Virus record (IMG/VR): IMGVR_UViG_2531839524_000004
DNA length: 64,000 nt
Strand: one strand, 5' to 3'
From: a virus
Lineage: Duplodnaviria > Heunggongvirae > Uroviricota > Caudoviricetes
Below, one piece after another: positions 2,354 through 60,460 of this stretch; position 1 is the stretch's first letter, and each line of letters starts with the position of its first letter. A program made the translations under genes and the position numbers. The notes under the pieces are model-generated. The model saw only the letters and a list, made by a program, of their open reading frames with translations, was not told the DNA's origin and did not search any database.

Positions 2354-3022
2354 ATGACCAAGATCTTTGTGGTTGGCGGCACAAAGGGCGGGCCTGGCAA
2401 ATCCACCGTTGCCCAGCAAATTGCCGTTTGCCTGAAAGTCAAAAAGAAGAAGAAGGTTTATATCACTGATATAGATATTCAGCGCACGACAACAAGCTGG
2501 TGTGAAGACCGTCGACAGAACGAAGACCTTGAGCTGATTCCTTTTGCATACGTTCAGGATGACATCATTAAGCACCTAAAATCGCTTCAGGGTAGAGCTG
2601 AGTTTGTAGTGGTAGATGCTGGTGGCTTTGACTCCGAAATTCAGCGACAAGCGATGCTGATGGCCGACGTTATCATTATCCCGCTGCGTCCTAAGCGTCG
2701 TGATTTGAAATCTTTACGTGACATCGATCCTATTATCGACAATGTTCGTAATGTAAACGATAAAGTGAAGGTCCGCGCGGTCATGAACCAGTGCCCGGCT
2801 TTGCCATCACAAGTGTCTCGCATTTTGGCGGCTAAAGAGATTGTCGAGACGTTTGGCATCGAGTCTGCGCCAGTCAATTTATATAACCGCAACGTCTATG
2901 ATGATGCGGAAGAGTCTGGTCGTTCTATCTTTGAAATGACCGGTAGCGAGCGCGACAAAAAGGCGGAAGCCGAGTTTGAAGAATTTGTAGATTATCTGTT
3001 GAGTCTGGAGGAAGAAGAATAA
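2354..3022 (+). CDS. parA: ParA-family partition ATPase
   Basis: Deviant Walker A GGTKGGPGKST near N-terminus, about 220 aa; followed by coupled small gene. Confidence 0.75.
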   Translation: MTKIFVVGGTKGGPGKSTVAQQIAVCLKVKKKKKVYITDIDIQRTTTSWCEDRRQNEDLELIPFAYVQDDIIKHLKSLQGRAEFVVVDAGGFDSEIQRQAMLMADVIIIPLRPKRRDLKSLRDIDPIIDNVRNVNDKVKVRAVMNQCPALPSQVSRILAAKEIVETFGIESAPVNLYNRNVYDDAEESGRSIFEMTGSERDKKAEAEFEEFVDYLLSLEEEE

Positions 3023-3381
3023 TGTCCATGAAAATGGGTGACCTAGCAAAGCGCAAAGAGCCTGATGCACCGGCTAAGAACACAACTCCTTTGCGCCAAC
3101 CAGTCAGACCACAGGGACGCCCGACTCGTGGCAAAGAGAAAATTAAAAGCCGCACAATGTCACTGGAGGACGAATACTTCGAACTGCTGGAGATGATGAA
3201 GTTCATCCCTCGCTTCGAGAAGTTCACTCGTTCTGACGTGATTCGAGCAGCCATTTTCCATCTGGCAGAGAAGTCACCGCAGGAAATCGAGGACATCGTG
3301 AAATTGAATGAGGCGATCACCGCTGCCGATGTCACGATGCGTACCGATGAAATCAAACGAGAGTTGATGAAGAAAGGTTAA
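3022..3381 (+). CDS. putative partition adaptor / centromere-binding protein (ParG/ParB-like small partner)
   Basis: 119 aa, start overlaps parA stop (TAATG); basic N-terminus; position typical of ParA partner; no direct domain proof. Confidence 0.45.
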   Translation: MSMKMGDLAKRKEPDAPAKNTTPLRQPVRPQGRPTRGKEKIKSRTMSLEDEYFELLEMMKFIPRFEKFTRSDVIRAAIFHLAEKSPQEIEDIVKLNEAITAADVTMRTDEIKRELMKKG

Positions 3382-3386
3382 AAATC

Positions 3387-3417
3387 ATGCATTGGCGCGT
3401 ACATTGCGCCAATGCAT
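3387..3417 (-). terminator. perfect 12-bp inverted repeat hairpin, probable terminator for the convergent minus-strand gene
   Basis: ATGCATTGGCGC-gtacatt-GCGCCAATGCAT; on the minus strand it is followed by a T-run (complement of AAAAAT at 3381-3386). Confidence 0.5.
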
Positions 3418-3433
3418 AACTACAGTGTCAGCT

Positions 3434-4201
3434 TTATGCCGCGCTAACACTATGTTCAGTCCTAACCACCCCAACCTTCACAAAAGGGCTACCGTAGCTT
3501 GGTGGCTTCTTGATTAATTTGCCTACATACAGTTTTCTAATATGCTCATCGGCTATTCTGCCAACAAATTCATAACGTTTTGTGTCGGGGCCAAGAGCTA
3601 TATCCCTTGTAAAGTACTGCTGAGAACCGGCTTTGACCCAGCATTCAATCTGATAAACTTCCATTATCAGCCCACCATATGTAGCGTAGGCATATTTGAG
3701 ATTCTCGTCTCTTGGAACCTTTGCCCATACGCCACGCGTAGCTTCATATAATGCCAGAGCGGACATTCCTGACTTGTAGGTGCTGTTTAGCAGGAAGGCA
3801 AGACCGGCGTGCTCAGGAGCAATTTCAGTTTCCTCTTGCAGCACTAAGTGATGGTAGGCGTCCAGTGATATTCTGCCCATCATGGAACCACTTCCTCGTA
3901 CCTTATTCGTAAGCTCTCCGACCCCCATAAGGTCGATGCATGTCGCCTCAACAAGTTTGGCTGTGGTTTCATCCATACCATGACGAAGTATATCTATGCC
4001 TAATTTTTTATTAGCCAAAAGTTCTTTGATCCGCATGGATTTGGGAGAGTCATCGGGATACTTGATGTGATCGAGACAACGAGTCGATTTGCCTTTTCCT
4101 ATGTAAAACGGTCTTTTCATCTTGTCTTCTGTATCATAGAGACAGTAAACATAGTATTTAGCCTTATCCAATGATCTCGCGTATACCGATAAATCGTCCA
4201 T
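3434..4201 (-). CDS. GIY-YIG-type nuclease domain protein (possible homing-endonuclease-like)
   Basis: N-terminal YVYCLYD...FYIGKGK...R motif typical of GIY-YIG; 255 aa; isolated minus-strand gene. Confidence 0.55.
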   Translation of the reverse strand: MDDLSVYARSLDKAKYYVYCLYDTEDKMKRPFYIGKGKSTRCLDHIKYPDDSPKSMRIKELLANKKLGIDILRHGMDETTAKLVEATCIDLMGVGELTNKVRGSGSMMGRISLDAYHHLVLQEETEIAPEHAGLAFLLNSTYKSGMSALALYEATRGVWAKVPRDENLKYAYATYGGLIMEVYQIECWVKAGSQQYFTRDIALGPDTKRYEFVGRIADEHIRKLYVGKLIKKPPSYGSPFVKVGVVRTEHSVSAA

Positions 4202-4319
4202 TATTGCATCTCTTTGCTACTGACTAATGCGTTCTATTTTACACATAAGTTTTTAATCAATTTAACAGGCTCAAAGTGTAGAGCTTCTGGGCGTCTAAGA
4301 CGACAAGTTAGCCTGCTTC

Positions 4320-4380
4320 TGTATATATAAATAATAAGTAACTTATTAAATATATATACGGAAGCAGGTCTTTTAAAAGA
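4320..4380. repeat. about 60-bp near-perfect AT-rich palindrome; first of two related copies in the window
   Basis: AGCCTGCTTCTGTATATATAAATAATAAGTAACTTATTAAATATATATACGGAAGCAGGTC; left arm identical to 52709..52733. Confidence 0.6.
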
Positions 4381-4484
4381 CACCACCAGAACAACTCCCT
4401 TCCGTTTCCACTTCCAAAAACTGCCACCAGTCGCTATCATCCGCTCATTGTGATAAGTAAGTAACTACCTACCAGGTGAGCCAC

Positions 4485-5225
4485 ATGAGCCAAATCTTTT
4501 TCGATACCATCGACAACGACCAGTACGACTTCATGACAGAGTGGAATACCGCTGTTATGGACAAGTGGGTCGCTGAAAACATTGGTTTGTCGCGCTGTAA
4601 AGACGAGGCTGAACTCTTCGAGACGAAGTGGTTTGATTACCGCGACATGCATCCTCTCATGGCCACCTGTCTTTTTACGGAGGCATACAAACGTCAGTAC
4701 TCAAATATCATGCTGACGCACGGTCGCGAACACTTTGAAACAGCTCCGTTCACCACCGGGTTAAAACGCCTGCCTTATCAGGAGTTGTCGACTGCCAATA
4801 AAACGTCGCTATGGAAAGCACGCCAGTTTGCGGATCGCTATTGCTGCTCATACGACTACTTTATCTCCACCGTTCTTTCCGCAGCTGCACGACGGCTGTG
4901 GGACAAGCTGCCGCGCCCACAGCATTTGTGGCAGCCAGAACTGATTGAGATATTTGAAGAGAAATTAGCCAGACGCGCAACAACCCGTCTGGATGACTCT
5001 CTGGTTAGCTTTAAGCATATGGGAGACATGCAGTTCAACCCGATTCAGGAAAGCTATTTTGAGTGGATTCTGGAGCGTTTGCGCACCATCCCTCGCAGCA
5101 AGCGCATACGCGCAATTTTCTCCGCTATCTGGCTAATGGAAATCGTTCCAGAGCGCCTTATTTCCGCCCACTTTCCAGAAGAACTGGAAGAAGCACGGCG
5201 GTTTATTGATCCCCTATCTAATTAA
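4485..5225 (+). CDS. hypothetical protein
   Basis: ORF with AGGTGA RBS 5 nt upstream of ATG 4485 (track ORF begins at in-frame GTG 4476). Confidence 0.5.
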   Translation: MSQIFFDTIDNDQYDFMTEWNTAVMDKWVAENIGLSRCKDEAELFETKWFDYRDMHPLMATCLFTEAYKRQYSNIMLTHGREHFETAPFTTGLKRLPYQELSTANKTSLWKARQFADRYCCSYDYFISTVLSAAARRLWDKLPRPQHLWQPELIEIFEEKLARRATTRLDDSLVSFKHMGDMQFNPIQESYFEWILERLRTIPRSKRIRAIFSAIWLMEIVPERLISAHFPEELEEARRFIDPLSN

Positions 5226-13311: not shown

Positions 13312-13386
13312 GATGGTGTAGCTCAGCGGTAGAGCAGTTGGCTGTTAACCAACTGGTCGGTGGTTCGAATCCACCCACCATCGCCA
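13312..13386 (+). tRNA. tRNA-Asn (anticodon GTT)
   Basis: Hand-folded cloverleaf: acceptor GATGGTG/CACCATC, anticodon loop CTGTTAA, T-loop TTCGAAT, encoded CCA. Confidence 0.85.
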
Positions 13387-13391
13387 ATTTA

Positions 13392-13478
13392 GGGGAGTTA
13401 GTCCGTAGAGGTAGCGGTGTAGACTGTAAATCTACTGTCATGGCGACTCGGGTGGTTCGACTCCATCACTCCCCACCA
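13392..13478 (+). tRNA. tRNA-Tyr (anticodon GTA), long variable arm
   Basis: Acceptor GGGGAGT/ACTCCCC, anticodon loop CTGTAAA, long variable arm, encoded CCA. Confidence 0.8.
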
Positions 13479-13482
13479 AATT

Positions 13483-13558
13483 GCCGGTTTAGCTCAGTTG
13501 GTAGAGCGCCTGCCTTGTAAGCAGGATGTCAGCGGTTCGAGTCCGTTAACCGGCACCA
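13483..13558 (+). tRNA. tRNA-Thr (anticodon TGT)
   Basis: Acceptor GCCGGTT/AACCGGC, D-arm GCTCAGTTGGTAGAGC, anticodon loop CTTGTAA, T-loop TTCGAGT, CCA. Confidence 0.85.
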
Positions 13559-13775
13559 ACACAACAGGAAAGAGCATTGAAACCCGCCGAGACTGCCCTG
13601 TTTTAAGCGTAAGTCCGTGCAAACGTCATACAGTGCTCTTTTCGTTGTGGTTGATGCGCAGACTGATGCGCGGAAAGAAATGCCCCAGCGACACACGAGG
13701 CGAGTTCACACACTGCAATGCAGTCAGTAGCCGGGGTCGCTAAGCCGGAGATCAGTACCGGTAACCACAACAATT

Positions 13776-13862
13776 GGAGAGTAGGGAGCATGGTGCTCAA
13801 GCGGTCTTGAAAACCGTCCCATTGTGCAAACGATGATGGTTCGATTCCATTACTCTCCGCCA
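13776..13862 (+). tRNA. tRNA-Ser (anticodon TGA), long variable arm
   Basis: Acceptor GGAGAGT/ACTCTCC, anticodon loop CTTGAAA, long variable arm, T-loop TTCGATT, CCA; D-arm pairing slightly irregular. Confidence 0.7.
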
Positions 13863-14016
13863 GACACAGCGTTGAGCGGTTTGGCCTTTTAATCAACTCG
13901 ATTAAGACTCCGCTAACATAAACCAGACCGCTCAACGCTGTGATAGATAATTACGGCAGACGTTCTTAACCATAGCTTGCTAACATCCTAGCAACACTTT
14001 TTTCAGCGCAAAATTC

Positions 14017-14041
14017 AAAGGGGCTTCGGCCCCTTTTTTGT
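14017..14041 (+). terminator. rho-independent terminator closing the tRNA cluster
   Basis: GGGGC-TTCG-GCCCC followed by TTTTTT. Confidence 0.8.
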
Positions 14042-14054
14042 TGAACAGTGCAAT

Positions 14055-15317
14055 TTACTTTGCATAGTCGCCCAATTTTAATATTTCGCGCTTATATTCA
14101 TTAACCATGCTACTGGATTCAGTATAAATTCGATTTAAAAGATTATCGTTATCTTTATTTTCATTTATCTTAATTAGTGCTAATTTATATTCATAGTCAT
14201 CAAATGCCACAATTAAATGGTGGCCTGGGATTATATCTTCGTCACTCTTAAAGTATATATCTTCAAGTATGTAATCTAGTTGATTAGATTTTCTTTTCTC
14301 GATGTAATCTTCAGCCATAGCTATTACATCATTCCTGTCATTTAACCTGTTTTTTTCGGAAGGCACATCTTCGTAATGTTGCACGATTGAACAACCAATA
14401 AGGCGTGGGATGTAAACGTCAAAATGAGTAACTCTATCATTCGCGGTTTTAAGTAGTTCCTCAAAGTAGTTTCTTACATGTAAAGGCAACTTCTCAAAGT
14501 AATCATTAATTATAGGAGAACAAGGAGTTTTATAATTCATAAGAACCGACGGTACGAGCTTTGGGTGTCGAAACATCCAGTCCCTTTTAACGTCCGATGG
14601 AACATAATAACTTTTAATGATATTATCAAAATAATTTATCATTCGAGATTTGAATATTTTGTTGAATCTAAGGTTTATGAATGTATCCAGATAAGGCATA
14701 TTTGAATAAGCATCATCAAAAAATATTTCATCATTGAAAAAATCATATTTATTCAATAAACAACACAGTTTTTCCGAATTAATATGTTCACAATAATCGA
14801 TTTTTAATCCAAAGATAGCAATGATCAACTTCATCTGAGGTGGGATTTTAAAAATTAATTGTGACACATACGCTCTTTTTTCCTTGAGACATTCCCCATC
14901 AATATAAAATGAACCATCCACATACTCAAATATATTAATAATATGCTTCACATACTGTATTACCTCATGCTGTCTTACCAATGGATAATATAGTCTATGT
15001 AACTCATCGCTGTTTAAATTAATTTTGTGTTTATCGATAATTTGTTTTGCAAGAAGACATAACTCATCATGTTGATTTAATAAGGAATCAAACCATTGTT
15101 TAAATGCACTCTTTCGCATTTCGAACAATGATTCAGTTGTTAATTGAAGGGCTGAAAAAGCTGCTTTTGCACTTTTTCTCGCTTCGTAGGCATTCCATGC
15201 TGTTGCTATAAAAGCAAATGCTGTAGCCAATGTTCCAACAGTTTGACCATTTAAAACAACCCAATCCCAAAAAATGACGGTGAGCAGTAGTATAATAATG
15301 AAAATTAAAAAAGGCAT
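14055..15317 (-). CDS. membrane-anchored hypothetical protein, strongly AT-rich accessory gene
   Basis: 420 aa; two N-terminal TM helices; base composition much more AT-rich than flanking genes; isolated on minus strand. Confidence 0.6.
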   Translation of the reverse strand: MPFLIFIIILLLTVIFWDWVVLNGQTVGTLATAFAFIATAWNAYEARKSAKAAFSALQLTTESLFEMRKSAFKQWFDSLLNQHDELCLLAKQIIDKHKINLNSDELHRLYYPLVRQHEVIQYVKHIINIFEYVDGSFYIDGECLKEKRAYVSQLIFKIPPQMKLIIAIFGLKIDYCEHINSEKLCCLLNKYDFFNDEIFFDDAYSNMPYLDTFINLRFNKIFKSRMINYFDNIIKSYYVPSDVKRDWMFRHPKLVPSVLMNYKTPCSPIINDYFEKLPLHVRNYFEELLKTANDRVTHFDVYIPRLIGCSIVQHYEDVPSEKNRLNDRNDVIAMAEDYIEKRKSNQLDYILEDIYFKSDEDIIPGHHLIVAFDDYEYKLALIKINENKDNDNLLNRIYTESSSMVNEYKREILKLGDYAK

Positions 15318-15491
15318 GTATGTATTTCACTCTACTAACTATAAAATATTAGGCTAATGTTAACCAAACAATGCCTTAATTAATAGATTGATCGAGGCTT
15401 TAATAGCTTTATAATGCAGACTGTAAAGATAAGTATGCACATACCTATCTTCTTTGTAAGTAAAGTTGCATATCAATTCTATGAGGTAACA

Positions 15492-15737
15492 ATGACGATC
15501 ACTATCTACGGACGAGATAACTGCTCATACTGCAAACGTGCGGTCGAGCTGGCGAAGCAACTAAAGGGACATGGCTACGGTGATTATGAGTACATCGACA
15601 TCACCACTGCCGGTATCGACAAGGAAAAACTAAGTGAAATTGTTGGTAAACCGGTAGAGACTATCCCCCAAGTGCTGATCGATGGCCAACCGATTGGCGG
15701 ATACACAGAACTGGCTGCATACGTCAGCACCCTCTGA
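15492..15737 (+). CDS. glutaredoxin/NrdH-like redoxin
   Basis: MTITIYGRDNCSYCKRA with CxxC active-site motif; GAGG RBS 4 nt upstream of ATG 15492. Confidence 0.7.
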   Translation: MTITIYGRDNCSYCKRAVELAKQLKGHGYGDYEYIDITTAGIDKEKLSEIVGKPVETIPQVLIDGQPIGGYTELAAYVSTL

Positions 15738-15741
15738 TTTT

Positions 15742-15766
15742 AACGGCTCACAGGAGCCGTTTTTAT
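15742..15766 (+). terminator. rho-independent terminator
   Basis: AACGGCTC-acag-GAGCCGTT followed by TTTATT. Confidence 0.65.
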
Positions 15767-15947
15767 TCCCACCAAACTCACTCCCGTTTCCCTTAAAATT
15801 CAAAAAACAACGTCAAAATGATTCCATACCTACTATGTATGGAATCATTACTGAAAATGAGTTACTTTGACTCTTGATCCTATAAGAATCTATGCCTAAT
15901 ATACTGTTTACTTATACAGTGAATCGGCGTAACTCGGTGATTGTCAT

Positions 15948-17051
15948 ATGAAAAATAGCTTTGACAGAGCACGCGCTGCGGAGAACACCTCAAAAGAGGC
16001 GATTGAGTATCTCGAAAGAGCATCTCAAATGCAGGCCGTTATGATCTCGCAGGTTAGCAATGATATGAGATTCTCGGACGCATTCATGTTATTTACTCGC
16101 TTATCTCTGCTGATAACAAGACGTCGGCCGGAGATCGCTGTTCATTGTATTTTGATACATGTTTTGCCGCACATTGCTGATGTAAAAGTAAGTGACATTA
16201 ATAGGTTCATGGTGAACCAACTGGTCAACCCCCTAATACTGGATGGCAAAATTGTTATGGGCCGCCGCGTTTTCTCTCTGATGAAGCAGTTCCTTAGCTG
16301 GTGTGCCTTCCAGGGGATGATCGACGTGTCACCGTTAAACGATATGTCACTAAACAAAGTTGCCGGTGGCGCAAAGCCCACGCCTCGCGAGCGGAAGCTA
16401 ACCGACGCAGAGGTATGGGTGTTCTGGAATATATGGGACTACTTCAATGTGTGCGCTGGTACAAAATGGGCGGCCAGGCTATGTCTTGTATCCGCAAGAC
16501 GACCTGACGAAGTACTGCGGGCTAAAAAAAGTGAGTTCAACCTCCAGCGTGGGGTTTGGAATCAAGGCAAGAGAAACAAATCAGCCCGTGAGCATTCTCT
16601 GCCTTTAAGCACATTAATGCGCACATGCATTGAAGAGTTATTCGAATATGGTAAAGGCAGCCAGTGGCTTGTGCCTTCGAATAAAAAAATCGGGAAAGAT
16701 CTTCCGATGTCTAAAGTGGCAATAGCCCAGGCATTACGCCGTATCCTGGAACGACCAGAACTGATGGAGCTTGAGCCATTTACACCACGAGATTTGCGTC
16801 GTACTGCGCGTAGTTACTTCCCAGCATTAGGCATAAGCCAGGAGGTATCACGTAAAATCATGAACCACAGTCTTGAGGGGATAGATCGGGTCTACGACCG
16901 GCACGATTATATGGACGAGATGCGAGACGCCTTAGAAAGTTTCTCGACGTACATCGCATCAATCGTAGAGCAACCGGATTTAGACGAAATTGACCACAAA
17001 TTCAAGGGAGATCGTCTATCGACAGAGCTTATTCGTGTAAATTTTTCATAG
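15948..17051 (+). CDS. tyrosine recombinase / phage-type integrase
   Basis: C-terminal catalytic region with DLRRT box and NHSLEG...RVYDRHDY (His and Tyr nucleophile); first His of HxLRR appears to be Arg. Confidence 0.65.
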   Translation: MKNSFDRARAAENTSKEAIEYLERASQMQAVMISQVSNDMRFSDAFMLFTRLSLLITRRRPEIAVHCILIHVLPHIADVKVSDINRFMVNQLVNPLILDGKIVMGRRVFSLMKQFLSWCAFQGMIDVSPLNDMSLNKVAGGAKPTPRERKLTDAEVWVFWNIWDYFNVCAGTKWAARLCLVSARRPDEVLRAKKSEFNLQRGVWNQGKRNKSAREHSLPLSTLMRTCIEELFEYGKGSQWLVPSNKKIGKDLPMSKVAIAQALRRILERPELMELEPFTPRDLRRTARSYFPALGISQEVSRKIMNHSLEGIDRVYDRHDYMDEMRDALESFSTYIASIVEQPDLDEIDHKFKGDRLSTELIRVNFS

Positions 17052-35066: not shown

Positions 35067-35112
35067 ATGCAAACTGACTGCGGCTCGTTCCGCAGTCATA
35101 TTTCATAGTCGT

Positions 35113-35646
35113 CACCGCTGACAGCATACACAATCAACTACCGCTGATAGCATATCGAGAGTCTATCTCACCGCTCACAGCATACTTTACTCGATTTTTT
35201 ACCGCTGACAGCATACTTAAGAAATTGCATGAATAATGTGTCCCAGTATGGGTATAACCAGAACAAAATTACCGCTGGCAGCATACGAATGTCTGACATA
35301 TACCATTAATTACCGCTGATAGCATATCCAAACAAAAATTCCTCAATAAAACACCGCTGACAGCATACGTTCTATCAGGGAGTAGCAGGCAATAAATGCC
35401 TTTCACTACAAGCAATCAGCGCAATAGCAATAGAATGTTAGTGAGCGCAAACCTATATGGAATGCACTCTTCGAGGTTAGTAACCACTGGGGAGGTATGA
35501 CAGAGCATTGAGTGGTGATAGATGATTTACCGCTCACAGCATACGTTCATCTCACTATACCGCTGGTAGCATATCTTTAACCGTTCACAGCATACTTTTC
35601 AGAAAAATAGCCGCTGATAGCATACATTTCACCGCTGACAGCATAT
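35113..35646. repeat. iteron array (about 12 copies of about 17 bp ACCGCTGACAGCATAC), incA-like copy-control locus
   Basis: Copies at about 35113, 35149, 35169, 35200, 35270, 35311, 35352, 35528, 35558, 35579, 35609, 35630 with minor variants; downstream of Rep gene. Confidence 0.8.
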
Positions 35647-36740
35647 CAAAGCAGTTTGAGACTATTGGAAAGGATCTCAATCATCTTGATATTTTCAGGC
35701 GTCAAATTCTGCGAAAGTTCGGTTATCTTGTTGATAATGTTCTGTTTGGCATCAATTTCCCCAGCTTTCTCATCTGGTTTTTTGGGTTCGATGTCTTCAG
35801 GTTTTGGCGGTGCGACTTTGAGTTTTGGATTGCGGCTGTGAATCTGGATATAGATCGACCGCCCACGCTTAATCTCGCTGTATTCGAGATAGCCCAAATC
35901 TTGGAGAGCTTTTAAGCCGTTACGTATAGTCTGATTCTGCGAGCTGACATTCCTGCTACTCAAATTGAGTCGCGCACGCAATCGAGCAAGCGATACCGGC
36001 GCAGGCTTGGTTGGAAGACTTTCGATGAAGGTGTACAGAGCCTGTGCTGTTTCTTTGCGTGGTAGCTTATTGATAACCTTTAACTGCAAAAGAACCTTAT
36101 GGTCAAAGCGATATAGTTCGGCCAGCTTCGGTTCTGCATAGAACACCACCGTATCTTTCTGCTCGTTGTAGTCCACGCTATTGATGAGGTGCACCATCAG
36201 AAGCGAGATCTTGTTAGAGCCGTCGACGTTCTTTTCTTCATACGTTCTCTGGAAAGACAGAGTTGTACGCATGATCTTCAAAAGACTGTTTGTAAGCCGG
36301 TCGCGGAGTGTTTTGCGGATCTGTGACGATGGATAGCCACAAAACTTAGCAAATTTCGTGATGCTTAACTCGACACGACCGTTAGGTTCGCCGTATTCTG
36401 CCAGCGAACGCACAACGCCCACCCACGTTTTGAAATCATGATCCATGTCGAGACGAGGACCGGTTATCTTGATATCGGAATAGCCTTCAGAACGGGCTAC
36501 TTCGAGCTGGACAAGCTCCTTTGAAGCATCGATCTCATTTGGCTTGTTACGTTTACTGTATTTTGTTCCCTTAAGCGTGGGGACGAACAACCCCAGTCGC
36601 ATCAACGCAATTGGTTGGACTGTATTGTTGCTATTAGGGACAAGTTCCCCTGTGTACAATTCAAGGGAACCTTCTTCAAAGTTGTCGATGTTATCTTCTA
36701 CTTCTTTGTTATTTTTACCTTTTTTATTTTTTGTGGACAT
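35646..36740 (-). CDS. plasmid-type replication initiator (Rep) protein
   Basis: Minus-strand 364 aa ORF flanked on both sides by iterons; start set at ATG (MSTKNKKGK) with AAGGTG RBS because the longer track ORF would overlap upstream iterons. Confidence 0.6.
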   Translation of the reverse strand: MSTKNKKGKNNKEVEDNIDNFEEGSLELYTGELVPNSNNTVQPIALMRLGLFVPTLKGTKYSKRNKPNEIDASKELVQLEVARSEGYSDIKITGPRLDMDHDFKTWVGVVRSLAEYGEPNGRVELSITKFAKFCGYPSSQIRKTLRDRLTNSLLKIMRTTLSFQRTYEEKNVDGSNKISLLMVHLINSVDYNEQKDTVVFYAEPKLAELYRFDHKVLLQLKVINKLPRKETAQALYTFIESLPTKPAPVSLARLRARLNLSSRNVSSQNQTIRNGLKALQDLGYLEYSEIKRGRSIYIQIHSRNPKLKVAPPKPEDIEPKKPDEKAGEIDAKQNIINKITELSQNLTPENIKMIEILSNSLKLL

Positions 36741-36759
36741 GTGGACACCTTTGTCATTC

Positions 36760-36863
36760 AACCGCTGACAGCATACTTGATTTGCCGCTGACAGAATACC
36801 AAAAACAGTTGGCAGCATACGGTGAACCGCTGACAGACTATCAATTACCGCTGACAGCATACA
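36760..36863. repeat. iteron array (5 copies) upstream of rep, origin/incC-like
   Basis: ACCGCTGACAGCATAC-type repeats at about 36760, 36783, 36805, 36825, 36845. Confidence 0.75.
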
Positions 36864-52094: not shown

Positions 52095-52688
52095 ATGATT
52101 GCAGCCGAAAAAATCAAACAGCGAAAGCGCGACAACTCTCTTCGTGACCTCTGGAGAACACCTGACTGGCTGTTTTCTGCCATTCAACGTTATCTTGGAG
52201 TGACATTTGATGTTGACGTTGCCTGCAACAAGGACAATGCAAAGCTGCCTAATTTCATAGGCGTTGAGCGTGATGCTTTGAAATCTGAATGGGGACAGCC
52301 AGGTACAATTGCCTTCCTCAATCCACCCTACTCCAAAATCTCCCCCTGGATTGATGCGGCTATACGTGAGCAGGCTCCCGGAGTTACAACAGTGATGCTA
52401 ATTCCTCAATCCCTAGATACAAAGTGGTATGAGCGTGCAACAGAGTGTGCGAATGAGACGATTATTCTGTCTGGTGGCCGCGTAGCGTTTGTCGAGCCTG
52501 ACGTAAATCTGGGTCAGGTAGAAGTAAACATCAACCCAGGTGGCAGTATGCTCGTTGTTTTTCGAGGATTCTGTCAGGACGCTGGGCACTCTATAAGCAA
52601 GATCCCTTTGGACGTCATGAAAAGTCTGGGAGGGTATGATCCTGCGAATGTGATCAGGAAAAAAAGACCATCAAAGAAGGCTGCTTAG
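52095..52688 (+). CDS. phage-type N6-adenine DNA methyltransferase (Dam-like)
   Basis: Catalytic motif FLNPPYS (DPPY/NPPY class) and small size (197 aa) typical of phage Dam family. Confidence 0.7.
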   Translation: MIAAEKIKQRKRDNSLRDLWRTPDWLFSAIQRYLGVTFDVDVACNKDNAKLPNFIGVERDALKSEWGQPGTIAFLNPPYSKISPWIDAAIREQAPGVTTVMLIPQSLDTKWYERATECANETIILSGGRVAFVEPDVNLGQVEVNINPGGSMLVVFRGFCQDAGHSISKIPLDVMKSLGGYDPANVIRKKRPSKKAA

Positions 52689-52708
52689 TTTGTTCTGGTG
52701 TCTGTAAT

Positions 52709-52768
52709 TAGCCTGCTTCTGTATATATAAATAACTACATATTAATTATTAATATACGGAAGAAGGCT
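52709..52768. repeat. second copy of AT-rich palindromic element
   Basis: AGCCTGCTTCTGTATATATAAATAA identical to 4320..4344; partner arm TTAATATACGGAAGAAGGCTG degenerate. Confidence 0.55.
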
Positions 52769-52873
52769 GTTTTGTATCAGAGACTCCAGACCTGAACATC
52801 ACTACAGAATCCACTAGAACCCCTTCCCAGACGCTTTAAAATCGATTTTATGAACCACTTTAAGGAAACCAAC

Positions 52874-60423: not shown

Positions 60424-60460
60424 AAGGCCATAAGTTGTGGCCTTAAATAAATTGTTTTCT
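60424..60460 (+). terminator. putative terminator
   Basis: AAGGCCA-taagttg-TGGCCTT hairpin followed by A/T-rich tract ending in TTTTCT. Confidence 0.4.

Follow-up and report, generated by a model that had tools for sequence, protein, structure and literature searches.

The question raised by this locus is what two AT-rich palindromic elements are doing in the intergenic DNA of a 64,000-nucleotide viral sequence (hereafter the window), for which a sequence-only reading had suggested bidirectional terminators, protein-binding sites, or targets of recombination or cleavage. Comparison with relatives places the window among the SSU5-like phage-plasmids of E. coli: it showed 99.3% identity to 'Escherichia phage CMS-2020a' and 99.8% identity to plasmid NZ_CP023851.1, and the phages Cyrano, PhiR41_1 and SSU5 were found to be further relatives. 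Members of this group are widespread in Escherichia, Klebsiella, Salmonella and Enterobacter, and resistance genes are present on some of them. To our knowledge, their regulatory layout is almost undescribed.

The first element, copy 1 (AGCCTGCTTCTGTATATATAAATAATAAGTAACTTATTAAATATATATACGGAAGCAGGT), is intergenic and located at 4310-4369. Its inner palindrome of 57 nt (4312-4368, plus strand) is the longest local inverted repeat in the window. The two arms (4312-4339 and 4341-4368) are 89% complementary, with a single T.G pair (T4320/G4360), a GC-rich base (CCTGCTTCTGTATATA / TATATACGGAAGCAGG) and an apical part that is AT-rich and palindromic. The sequence reported earlier at 4320-4380 was therefore present, but had been placed about 10 nt too far to the right. 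Copy 2 had been described as a degenerate version at 52709..52768, and was found at 52710-52768, also intergenic; its inner palindrome is at 52712-52766 (plus strand), from which the stem is prolonged to the outer ends via AG/CT. Its stem contains a G.A mismatch (G52715/A52763) and one T.G pair, and its centre is AT-rich yet barely palindromic. The first 27 nt and the right arm are common to both copies, which have the same orientation.

A search of the window with a 16-nt arm, allowing at most three mismatches, gave four matches, i.e. the four arms, compared with 0.53 expected, and none of the shuffles reached four. With filters off, the covariance model recovered two sites only in the window (E = 5e-14 and 7e-11), the next match having an E value of 0.18. 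On the sense strand, the RNA fold of copy 1 was -32.6 kcal/mol (z = -7.9 against shuffled sequence) and that of copy 2 was -23.9 kcal/mol (z = -4.5). Arm search, covariance model and folding thus bear out the existence of two AT-rich, intergenic palindromes in the same orientation.

To the left of copy 1 is the partition module, consisting of the ParA gene (2354-3022) and a small parB-like gene (3022-3381), followed by a minus-strand GIY-YIG-like ORF (3434-4201), whose match to the Pfam LEM-3-like GIY-YIG family was marginal (30.1 bits versus a cut-off of 27). Copy 1 does come after this ORF by position, as had been stated, but in terms of transcription it lies beyond the ORF's 5' end. To the right is the replication module, comprising genes for a 246-aa protein without assigned function, a DnaB-like helicase and a primase; the ATG of its first gene is at 4485 and is preceded by a Shine-Dalgarno sequence. 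A sigma-70-like promoter of this module is predicted at 4412-4440 on the plus strand (TTCCAA, 17 nt, TATCAT). It was read from the sequence and not flagged by a simple promoter scan, and the block containing it (CCCTTCCGTTTCCACTTCCAAAA...CCAGTCGCTATSAT) is kept across genera, from which we infer a putative promoter at this position. Between it and the Shine-Dalgarno/ATG (4485) is a repeated motif, TAAGTAAGTAACTACCTACCAG (4454-4475, plus strand), which looks like an operator. Copy 2 was correctly placed after the Dam methyltransferase gene (PF05869, E = 1e-37), and begins 23 nt past its stop codon (52686-52688). Promoter-like hexamers on the minus strand inside copies 1 and 2 were no commoner than in shuffles, and were given no weight.

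Searching relatives for further copies, as had been recommended, revealed a third one. The complete E. coli plasmid NZ_CP023851.1 has exactly three copies, oriented as almost all of its genes. One precedes the replication module, one follows Dam, and one separates a small ORF from the genes for the small and large subunits of terminase. The copy at the terminase position (copy 3) is outside the window. Exactly three copies at these positions were also present in a Klebsiella plasmid; its 246-aa replication-module protein and that of the window share 85.8% identity. In relatives, the start of each copy is 23-30 nt past the stop codon of a gene in the same orientation, and the next gene follows at 80-120 nt; this holds for copy 1 with an empty slot as well. 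For copies 1 and 3, both flanks are visibly homologous out to a pair of outer motifs, giving a repeated unit of about 105 nt. The stem is 26-28 bp in copies 1 and 3, and about 16 bp with an irregular top in copy 2. Constant in the family are the 14-16 bp at the base of the stem (CCTGCTTCTGTATATA with its complement), of which the basal 10 bp (CCTGCTTCTG) are GC-rich, an AT-rich apex of 20-50 nt that is palindromic in some copies only and, at copies 2 and 3, an outer inverted repeat.

The element was detected in 259 of 5,426 complete E. coli genomes, at a median of three places per genome, and 658 of the 660 occurrences were plasmid-borne; no feature was annotated beneath it among the E. coli RefSeq matches listed. 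Both chromosomal occurrences were in one chromosome (NZ_CP103694.1, ~954492-954550), and may represent an integrated phage-plasmid fragment. As far as this distribution goes, the element is specific to the SSU5-like phage-plasmid family and is not a general enterobacterial repeat. Among viral contigs, a 14-mer scan gave mostly chance matches, while a gapped two-arm pattern worked; an extra match in each of L259 and L272 was spurious, being inside the Dam coding sequence. When the gapped pattern was run with the diverged arms of the distant orthologues L308 and L309, only the known sites were recovered among the matches listed, the rest being chance. A scan of species-representative genomes with the 246-aa protein gave 6 loci only. 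Literature searches found no description of the element. Rfam 15 at gathering thresholds identified three tRNAs in the window and no match to the element, and a permissive search gave only sub-threshold, spurious microRNA-hairpin matches.

The surroundings of copy 1 differ from those of the other copies. Between the parB-like gene and copy 1 there is a slot for accessory genes (3382-4311), which in the window contains a small hairpin (~3386-3420) and the GIY-YIG-like ORF; homology of the window to Cyrano and SSU5 resumes at 4303-4312, i.e. at copy 1. Among 80 viral-contig loci, the left flanks of copy 1 fell into 23-24 unrelated families and the right flanks into 6-9, whereas copies 2 and 3 had conserved flanks on both sides. 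The slot was found to hold at least 20 unrelated accessory cassettes on either strand, most of their products being without known function. Its content in relatives was a GIY-YIG-like gene, a gene for a DUF2971 protein, other genes in either orientation or, in SSU5, a block of about 1.9 kb, and in some it was empty; in the empty slots (L409, L414, L448 and L459) 29-30 nt separate the stop codon of the parB-like gene from the palindrome. The cassettes often carry their own small terminator at the left junction. Equivalents of the hotspot were also seen in L388-L467, L001, L002 and L225-L229. Being retained everywhere, copy 1 is the fixed right-hand border of a cassette-swap hotspot, and the slot is most simply read as a place that tolerates insertions and ends at a signal whose loss is not tolerated.

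A border of this kind could also arise if the element were a site of active recombination, or a mobile regulatory cassette, driving the exchange of neighbouring genes, like the cassettes of T4-type phages or integron attC sites. The break of homology to Cyrano/SSU5 within a few nucleotides of the left edge of copy 1, the many unrelated left flanks set against few right ones, and the occurrence of both filled and empty slots would all be expected of it. However, the variable region borders copy 1 only, some cassette junctions are 22-25 nt further left, at the outer motif rather than at the palindrome, and attC core sites are absent. Three recombinase sites in direct repeat would delete a third of the genome. 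In two smaller plasmids, of 72 kb and 62 kb, the context upstream of copy 1 was the normal one, with nothing to suggest that copies had recombined. The pattern is explained by selection for retaining a terminator beside a permissive slot, and we regard active recombination as very unlikely. Of the earlier suggestion of a recombination target, what stands is that copy 1 passively borders a hotspot. Two specific candidates of this class were rejected. The arms (CCTGCTTCTGTATA/TATACGGAAGCAGG) lack the RYYYAAC ... GTTRRRY cores of an integron attC site; the only tyrosine recombinase is about 10 kb from the element in the complete relative, and the same palindrome borders all cassettes. The T4-type PeSL cassettes and the lambdoid 'moron' pattern are similar in that a hairpin with a downstream promoter borders a site of unrelated gene replacement, and the gene upstream of copy 1 in Cyrano, CYRAN_30, is classed as a moron expressed in lysogeny (PMC9928086). 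Unlike PeSL, the element is present in three copies rather than dozens, and only copy 1 borders variable genes, on the left side only; a PeSL-type mobile cassette was rejected on the conserved flanks of copies 2 and 3, such a cassette having variable genes on both sides.

The same comparison bears on the suggestion that the element is a cleavage or homing target of the adjacent GIY-YIG nuclease, for which the observation was that one copy adjoins the GIY-YIG-like ORF. The same element was found at the same place in relatives with an unrelated gene or no gene in the slot, and its other copies have no nuclease neighbour. Since it is kept in genomes without this ORF, the element predates the cassette and is independent of it, and the proposed link to the nuclease is not supported. 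A selfish miniature transposable element, for which the terminal inverted repeats might speak, would be expected to leave target-site duplications, of which there were none, and its positions would not be fixed across genera or confined almost wholly to plasmids at a median of three per genome. Either idea, nuclease target or selfish element, is extremely unlikely. ERIC/IRU, REP/BIME and miniature elements do resemble the element as imperfect palindromes of about 60-110 bp present in more than one copy in transcribed intergenic DNA, but it differs from ERIC/REP in its restriction to SSU5-like phage-plasmids, its three fixed syntenic positions and the lack of a chromosomal family. Fixed positions, lack of target duplications and near absence from chromosomes led us to reject a miniature transposable element or ERIC-like repeat.

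The sequence 3' of the palindromes gives the element a direction. A T-run, TCTTTT (4369-4374, plus strand), lies directly 3' of the copy 1 hairpin, and a T-rich tract, GTTTTGTA (52769-52776, plus strand; GTTTTG being 52769-52774), lies 3' of copy 2. At least five T in the 8 nt downstream were present in 49 of 55 distinct copy-1 variants and in 41 of 51 copy-2 variants; an upstream A-run matching the T-run was present in 12 of the 55 and in none of the 51. As the A-run does not mirror the T-run, the latter is not a mere part of the palindrome, and the element is polar. At copy 3, none of 47 variants had a T-run. The T.G asymmetry was also considered as a marker of the sense strand, but was dropped because PhiR41_1, and copy 2 of other lineages, show the reverse (C.A).

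Taken with their placement, these features suggest that the three-copy hairpins are probably factor-independent transcription terminators acting on the sense strand and insulating gene modules. Copies 1 and 2 each have a stable hairpin with a GC-rich stem on the transcribed strand and a U-tract directly 3' on the sense strand, the latter being missing from copy 3, and they lie downstream of a co-oriented transcription unit, with the minus-strand cassette gene intervening at copy 1 in the window. The earlier proposal of bidirectional terminators is thus favoured as to termination, but the asymmetry of the T-run makes the element look unidirectional. In published RNA-seq of the E. coli LF82 Cyrano lysogen, CYRAN_30, just upstream of copy 1, whose palindrome starts 24 nt past this gene, had log2 values of 5.7-10.4, and CYRAN_31, just downstream, had values of 2.3-4.2 in all ten samples (PMC9928086, S1 Table). 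At gene level, expression therefore falls up to ~200-fold across Cyrano copy 1, reaching the lowest values of the scale. Copy 2 had background values on either side, and the drop at copy 3 was 0-1.7 log2 (PMC9928086). A simple scan of the 193-nt spacer between CYRAN_30 and CYRAN_31 found no terminator-like site, and no strong hairpin other than the palindrome was seen there. We infer that RNA 3' ends are formed at the hairpin, and that copies 1 and 2 of the window act like Cyrano copy 1.

A divergent Klebsiella lineage, with 52-55% identity in the 246-aa replication-module protein, is informative about the positions themselves. At the copy-1 and copy-2 positions it has decayed half-palindromes beside canonical GC-rich terminators, and at the copy-3 position a diverged palindrome followed by TTATTTTTTGTGTTTTTTGG, a very long T-run. 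The loci concerned are L590 3752-3921 and 27789-27944, and L591 29464-29789 (NZ_CP057316.1); in L590 the remnants beside the canonical terminators at two positions consist of the right arm only (…TATAGGAGCCAGGC). With ordinary terminators at two of them in this lineage, the three positions appear to be termination points whichever hairpin fills them. In the distant orthologues L308 and L309, the sequences of the arms (GCCTTGCTCCCATA/TATGGGAGCAAGGC) and of the outer repeat are quite different and pair all the same, and three G.U pairs are present on the sense strand in Klebsiella copy 1.

In the model that we propose, copy 1 (4312-4368 plus TCTTTT) would stop transcripts coming from the partition operon and from the accessory gene in the adjacent slot, both of which are expressed in the lysogen, before they reach the repressed promoter of the lytic replication module with its 246-aa protein, DnaB-like helicase and primase. 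Copy 2 (52712-52766 plus GTTTTG) would end the nucleotide-metabolism/Dam transcription unit. Copy 3 would precede the terminase and structural genes and, having no T-run, would be a weak or conditional stop at most. The element thereby suggests how lytic replication genes may stay silent beside constitutively expressed partition and accessory genes. It also provides a precise address, at copy 1, for the hotspot at which accessory cargo is swapped, and the three copies offer landmarks for annotating transcription units. The element itself is real, conserved and useful for annotation, and its function is probably an ordinary one.

Several properties are not those of a plain terminator. Like intrinsic terminators, the element has a hairpin with a GC-rich base right after a stop codon, a T-run at copies 1 and 2, a gene-level drop in expression at Cyrano copy 1, and ordinary terminators at the same positions in a sister lineage. 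Unlike them, its stem is 14-28 bp and its apex, which is not always palindromic, 20-50 nt, far larger than the usual loop of 3-8 nt, and the whole hairpin is much longer and more AT-rich than in the usual terminator. Its arm sequence is kept across three paralogues and several genera, an outer inverted repeat extends beyond the T-run, and one paralogue has no T-run. At copy 1 of the window, the neighbouring gene is on the opposite strand, which leaves nothing for the element to stop other than antisense transcription or transcripts that run on from the parA operon. Nor did the arms covary: the score over 46 distinct arm pairs was 0.106 against 0.107 in shuffles, the covariation term of RNAalifold was only -0.17, and position 9, the most variable one, varied independently in the two arms (UG 21, CG 11, UA 8, CA 6). 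The stems are conserved as sequence rather than demonstrably as pairing, and the way in which the arms of distant relatives change symmetrically is just as compatible with a dimeric protein that binds DNA. We regard the family as undescribed, probable terminator/insulator hairpins with unusual features.

The outer inverted repeat is located 10-30 nt from the inner arms at copies 2 and 3 (GGTCTGGGAG ... CTCCCAGACC). At copy 2 of the window, its left arm TCTGGTGTCT (52694-52703, plus strand) pairs with AGACTCCAGA (52781-52790, plus strand), and in other lineages the arms at this copy are GTCTGGGAGTG/CACTCCCAGAC, GTCTGGGAGTT/AACTCCCAGAC and CCGCAGTGT/ACACTGCGG. Perfect complementarity of at least 7 nt between the outer arms was kept in 12 of 18 contexts of copy 2 and 10 of 15 of copy 3, compared with about 10% of shuffles (9% in the copy-2 comparison). 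At copy 1 the motifs are TTCTGGG (4285-4291, plus strand) and its partner CCAGAAC (4386-4392, plus strand), the latter conserved within the right flank; complementarity here was not above shuffles and was kept in 4 of 27 contexts, because the left flank is replaced by swapped cassettes. The outer arms folded closed around the inner hairpin in all six copies examined from E. coli and Klebsiella. As the outer 3' arm is beyond the T-run, a terminated transcript would miss it, and a role at the RNA level would be possible in read-through transcripts only. In L308 (1817-1895) and L309 (1794-1873), the outer-repeat motif CTGCGG occurs twice downstream of the element. The second occurrence extends into the next gene's ribosome-binding site (CTGCGGAGataaaATG), a hint that, in transcripts reading through, this site could be covered by the left outer arm.

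Such an arrangement might instead serve RNA processing or stability. RNase III requires a duplex of roughly two helical turns, and at lambda tI, read-through converts the terminator hairpin into a longer substrate for this enzyme. By analogy, RNase III would cut a duplex of about 100 nt, made of the inner hairpin and the outer stem, in read-through transcripts, and so separate or destabilise mRNA segments as at the T7 intercistronic sites or lambda sib/tI, an activity that could coexist with termination. The element has in common with lambda sib/tI and the T7 RNase III sites that several related long hairpins stand between the genes of one phage, and its inner hairpin and outer stem match the read-through layout of tI. 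The closing of the outer arms in all six copies examined, their complementarity above shuffles at copies 2 and 3 with sequences that change between lineages, stems at copies 1 and 3 longer than RNase III needs, and the missing T-run of copy 3, through which transcripts should read, are all consistent with it. A long perfect duplex is, however, not conserved: the centre of copy 2 is barely paired, the centres of the distant orthologues are non-palindromic, and the outer stem is missing at most copy-1 sites. A further difference from the lambda and T7 sites is that we know of no antitermination system in SSU5-like phage-plasmids. On balance, processing as the main role of the element is unlikely.

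A second alternative places the function in the DNA, with the AT-rich centre melting or forming a cruciform between inverted sites for a putative phage-plasmid protein; the element could then be a regulator site or a lytic origin, in which case each genome would have three, one of them adjoining the replication genes on their upstream side. The arm sequence is kept across paralogues and genera with no measurable covariation, the centre is always AT-rich though its sequence and length vary, and the arms and outer motifs change jointly in distant lineages, as co-evolving protein sites would. In addition, copy 1 adjoins the helicase/primase module, and half-sites in the apex, ATAAGT/ACTTAT, are common to a motif repeated at promoters. 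Against this, the plasmid replication origin is elsewhere, at 35110-36862, where there are a minus-strand ORF for a RepB-family initiator (35646-36860) and 11 iterons of about 16-20 nt (ACCGCTGACAGCATAC), eight of them at 35110-35625 and three, covering the beginning of the RepB-family gene, at 36780-36862. The GC skew is monotonic with no inflection at copy 1 or 2, and the spacing of the outer motifs ranges from 10 to 32 nt. An origin does not predict placement after stop codons, a T-run on the sense strand, a drop in RNA-seq signal or replacement by ordinary terminators, and a DNA-level site is distinctly unlikely.

The three elements could also be more than passive terminators, being read by a factor of the phage-plasmid either as conditional terminators or processing sites, or as DNA sites such as lytic origins. 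A dedicated cis-acting signal of this kind would explain the conserved arms, the co-varying outer repeat and the copy without T-run upstream of terminase. We consider this possibility tentative and on the unlikely side. In its conditional form, the stops would be overridden or cut in lytic growth, and the three modules would be coupled only after induction; as a DNA site, the AT-rich centre would be opened between inverted binding sites. If the element were a regulated signal and not a passive stop, it would offer an entry point into the lysogeny-lysis switch of the group.

Two dispersed motifs were noted in the window. A palindromic motif, AGAAAACAAnTTGTTT, is present in at least 7 copies (2290, 5221, 31418, 44940, 55169, 55888 and 60480, inverted at 60443), 15-35 nt upstream of the start codons of parA, the DnaB-like helicase gene and others. 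All relatives also have it ~45 nt past copy 3 (e.g. L217, L231, L312-L386); candidate roles are those of a phage-specific promoter, of an activator site and of a 5'-leader signal. The second consists of ATAAGTA/ATAGGTA, a gap of ~6 nt and TACTTAT/TACCTAT, and is found between -10-like hexamers and ribosome-binding sites at 4454, 9020, 12542, 26762, 30279, 34323, 37827, 52062, 54278 and 59245. It resembles dispersed repressor operators, and the apex of the element (AATAAGTaACTTATT) corresponds to its half-sites without the spacer.

Four tRNA genes (Asn, Tyr, Thr and Ser) are clustered at 13312-13862 of the window. On either side of the cluster is a long hairpin with a large loop (arms 12764-12785/12831-12852 and 13865-13884/13923-13942), and the region 14001-16000 has a G+C content of only 35%. 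The Klebsiella plasmid NZ_CP118908.1, a relative with blaNDM-1 on an IS26/IS91 island, has a gene for an HNH (NUMOD4) endonuclease directly after dnaE (L230 35932-38993), and a 2.3-kb LAGLIDADG endonuclease ORF in the recombination/replication region (L230 44335-46677).
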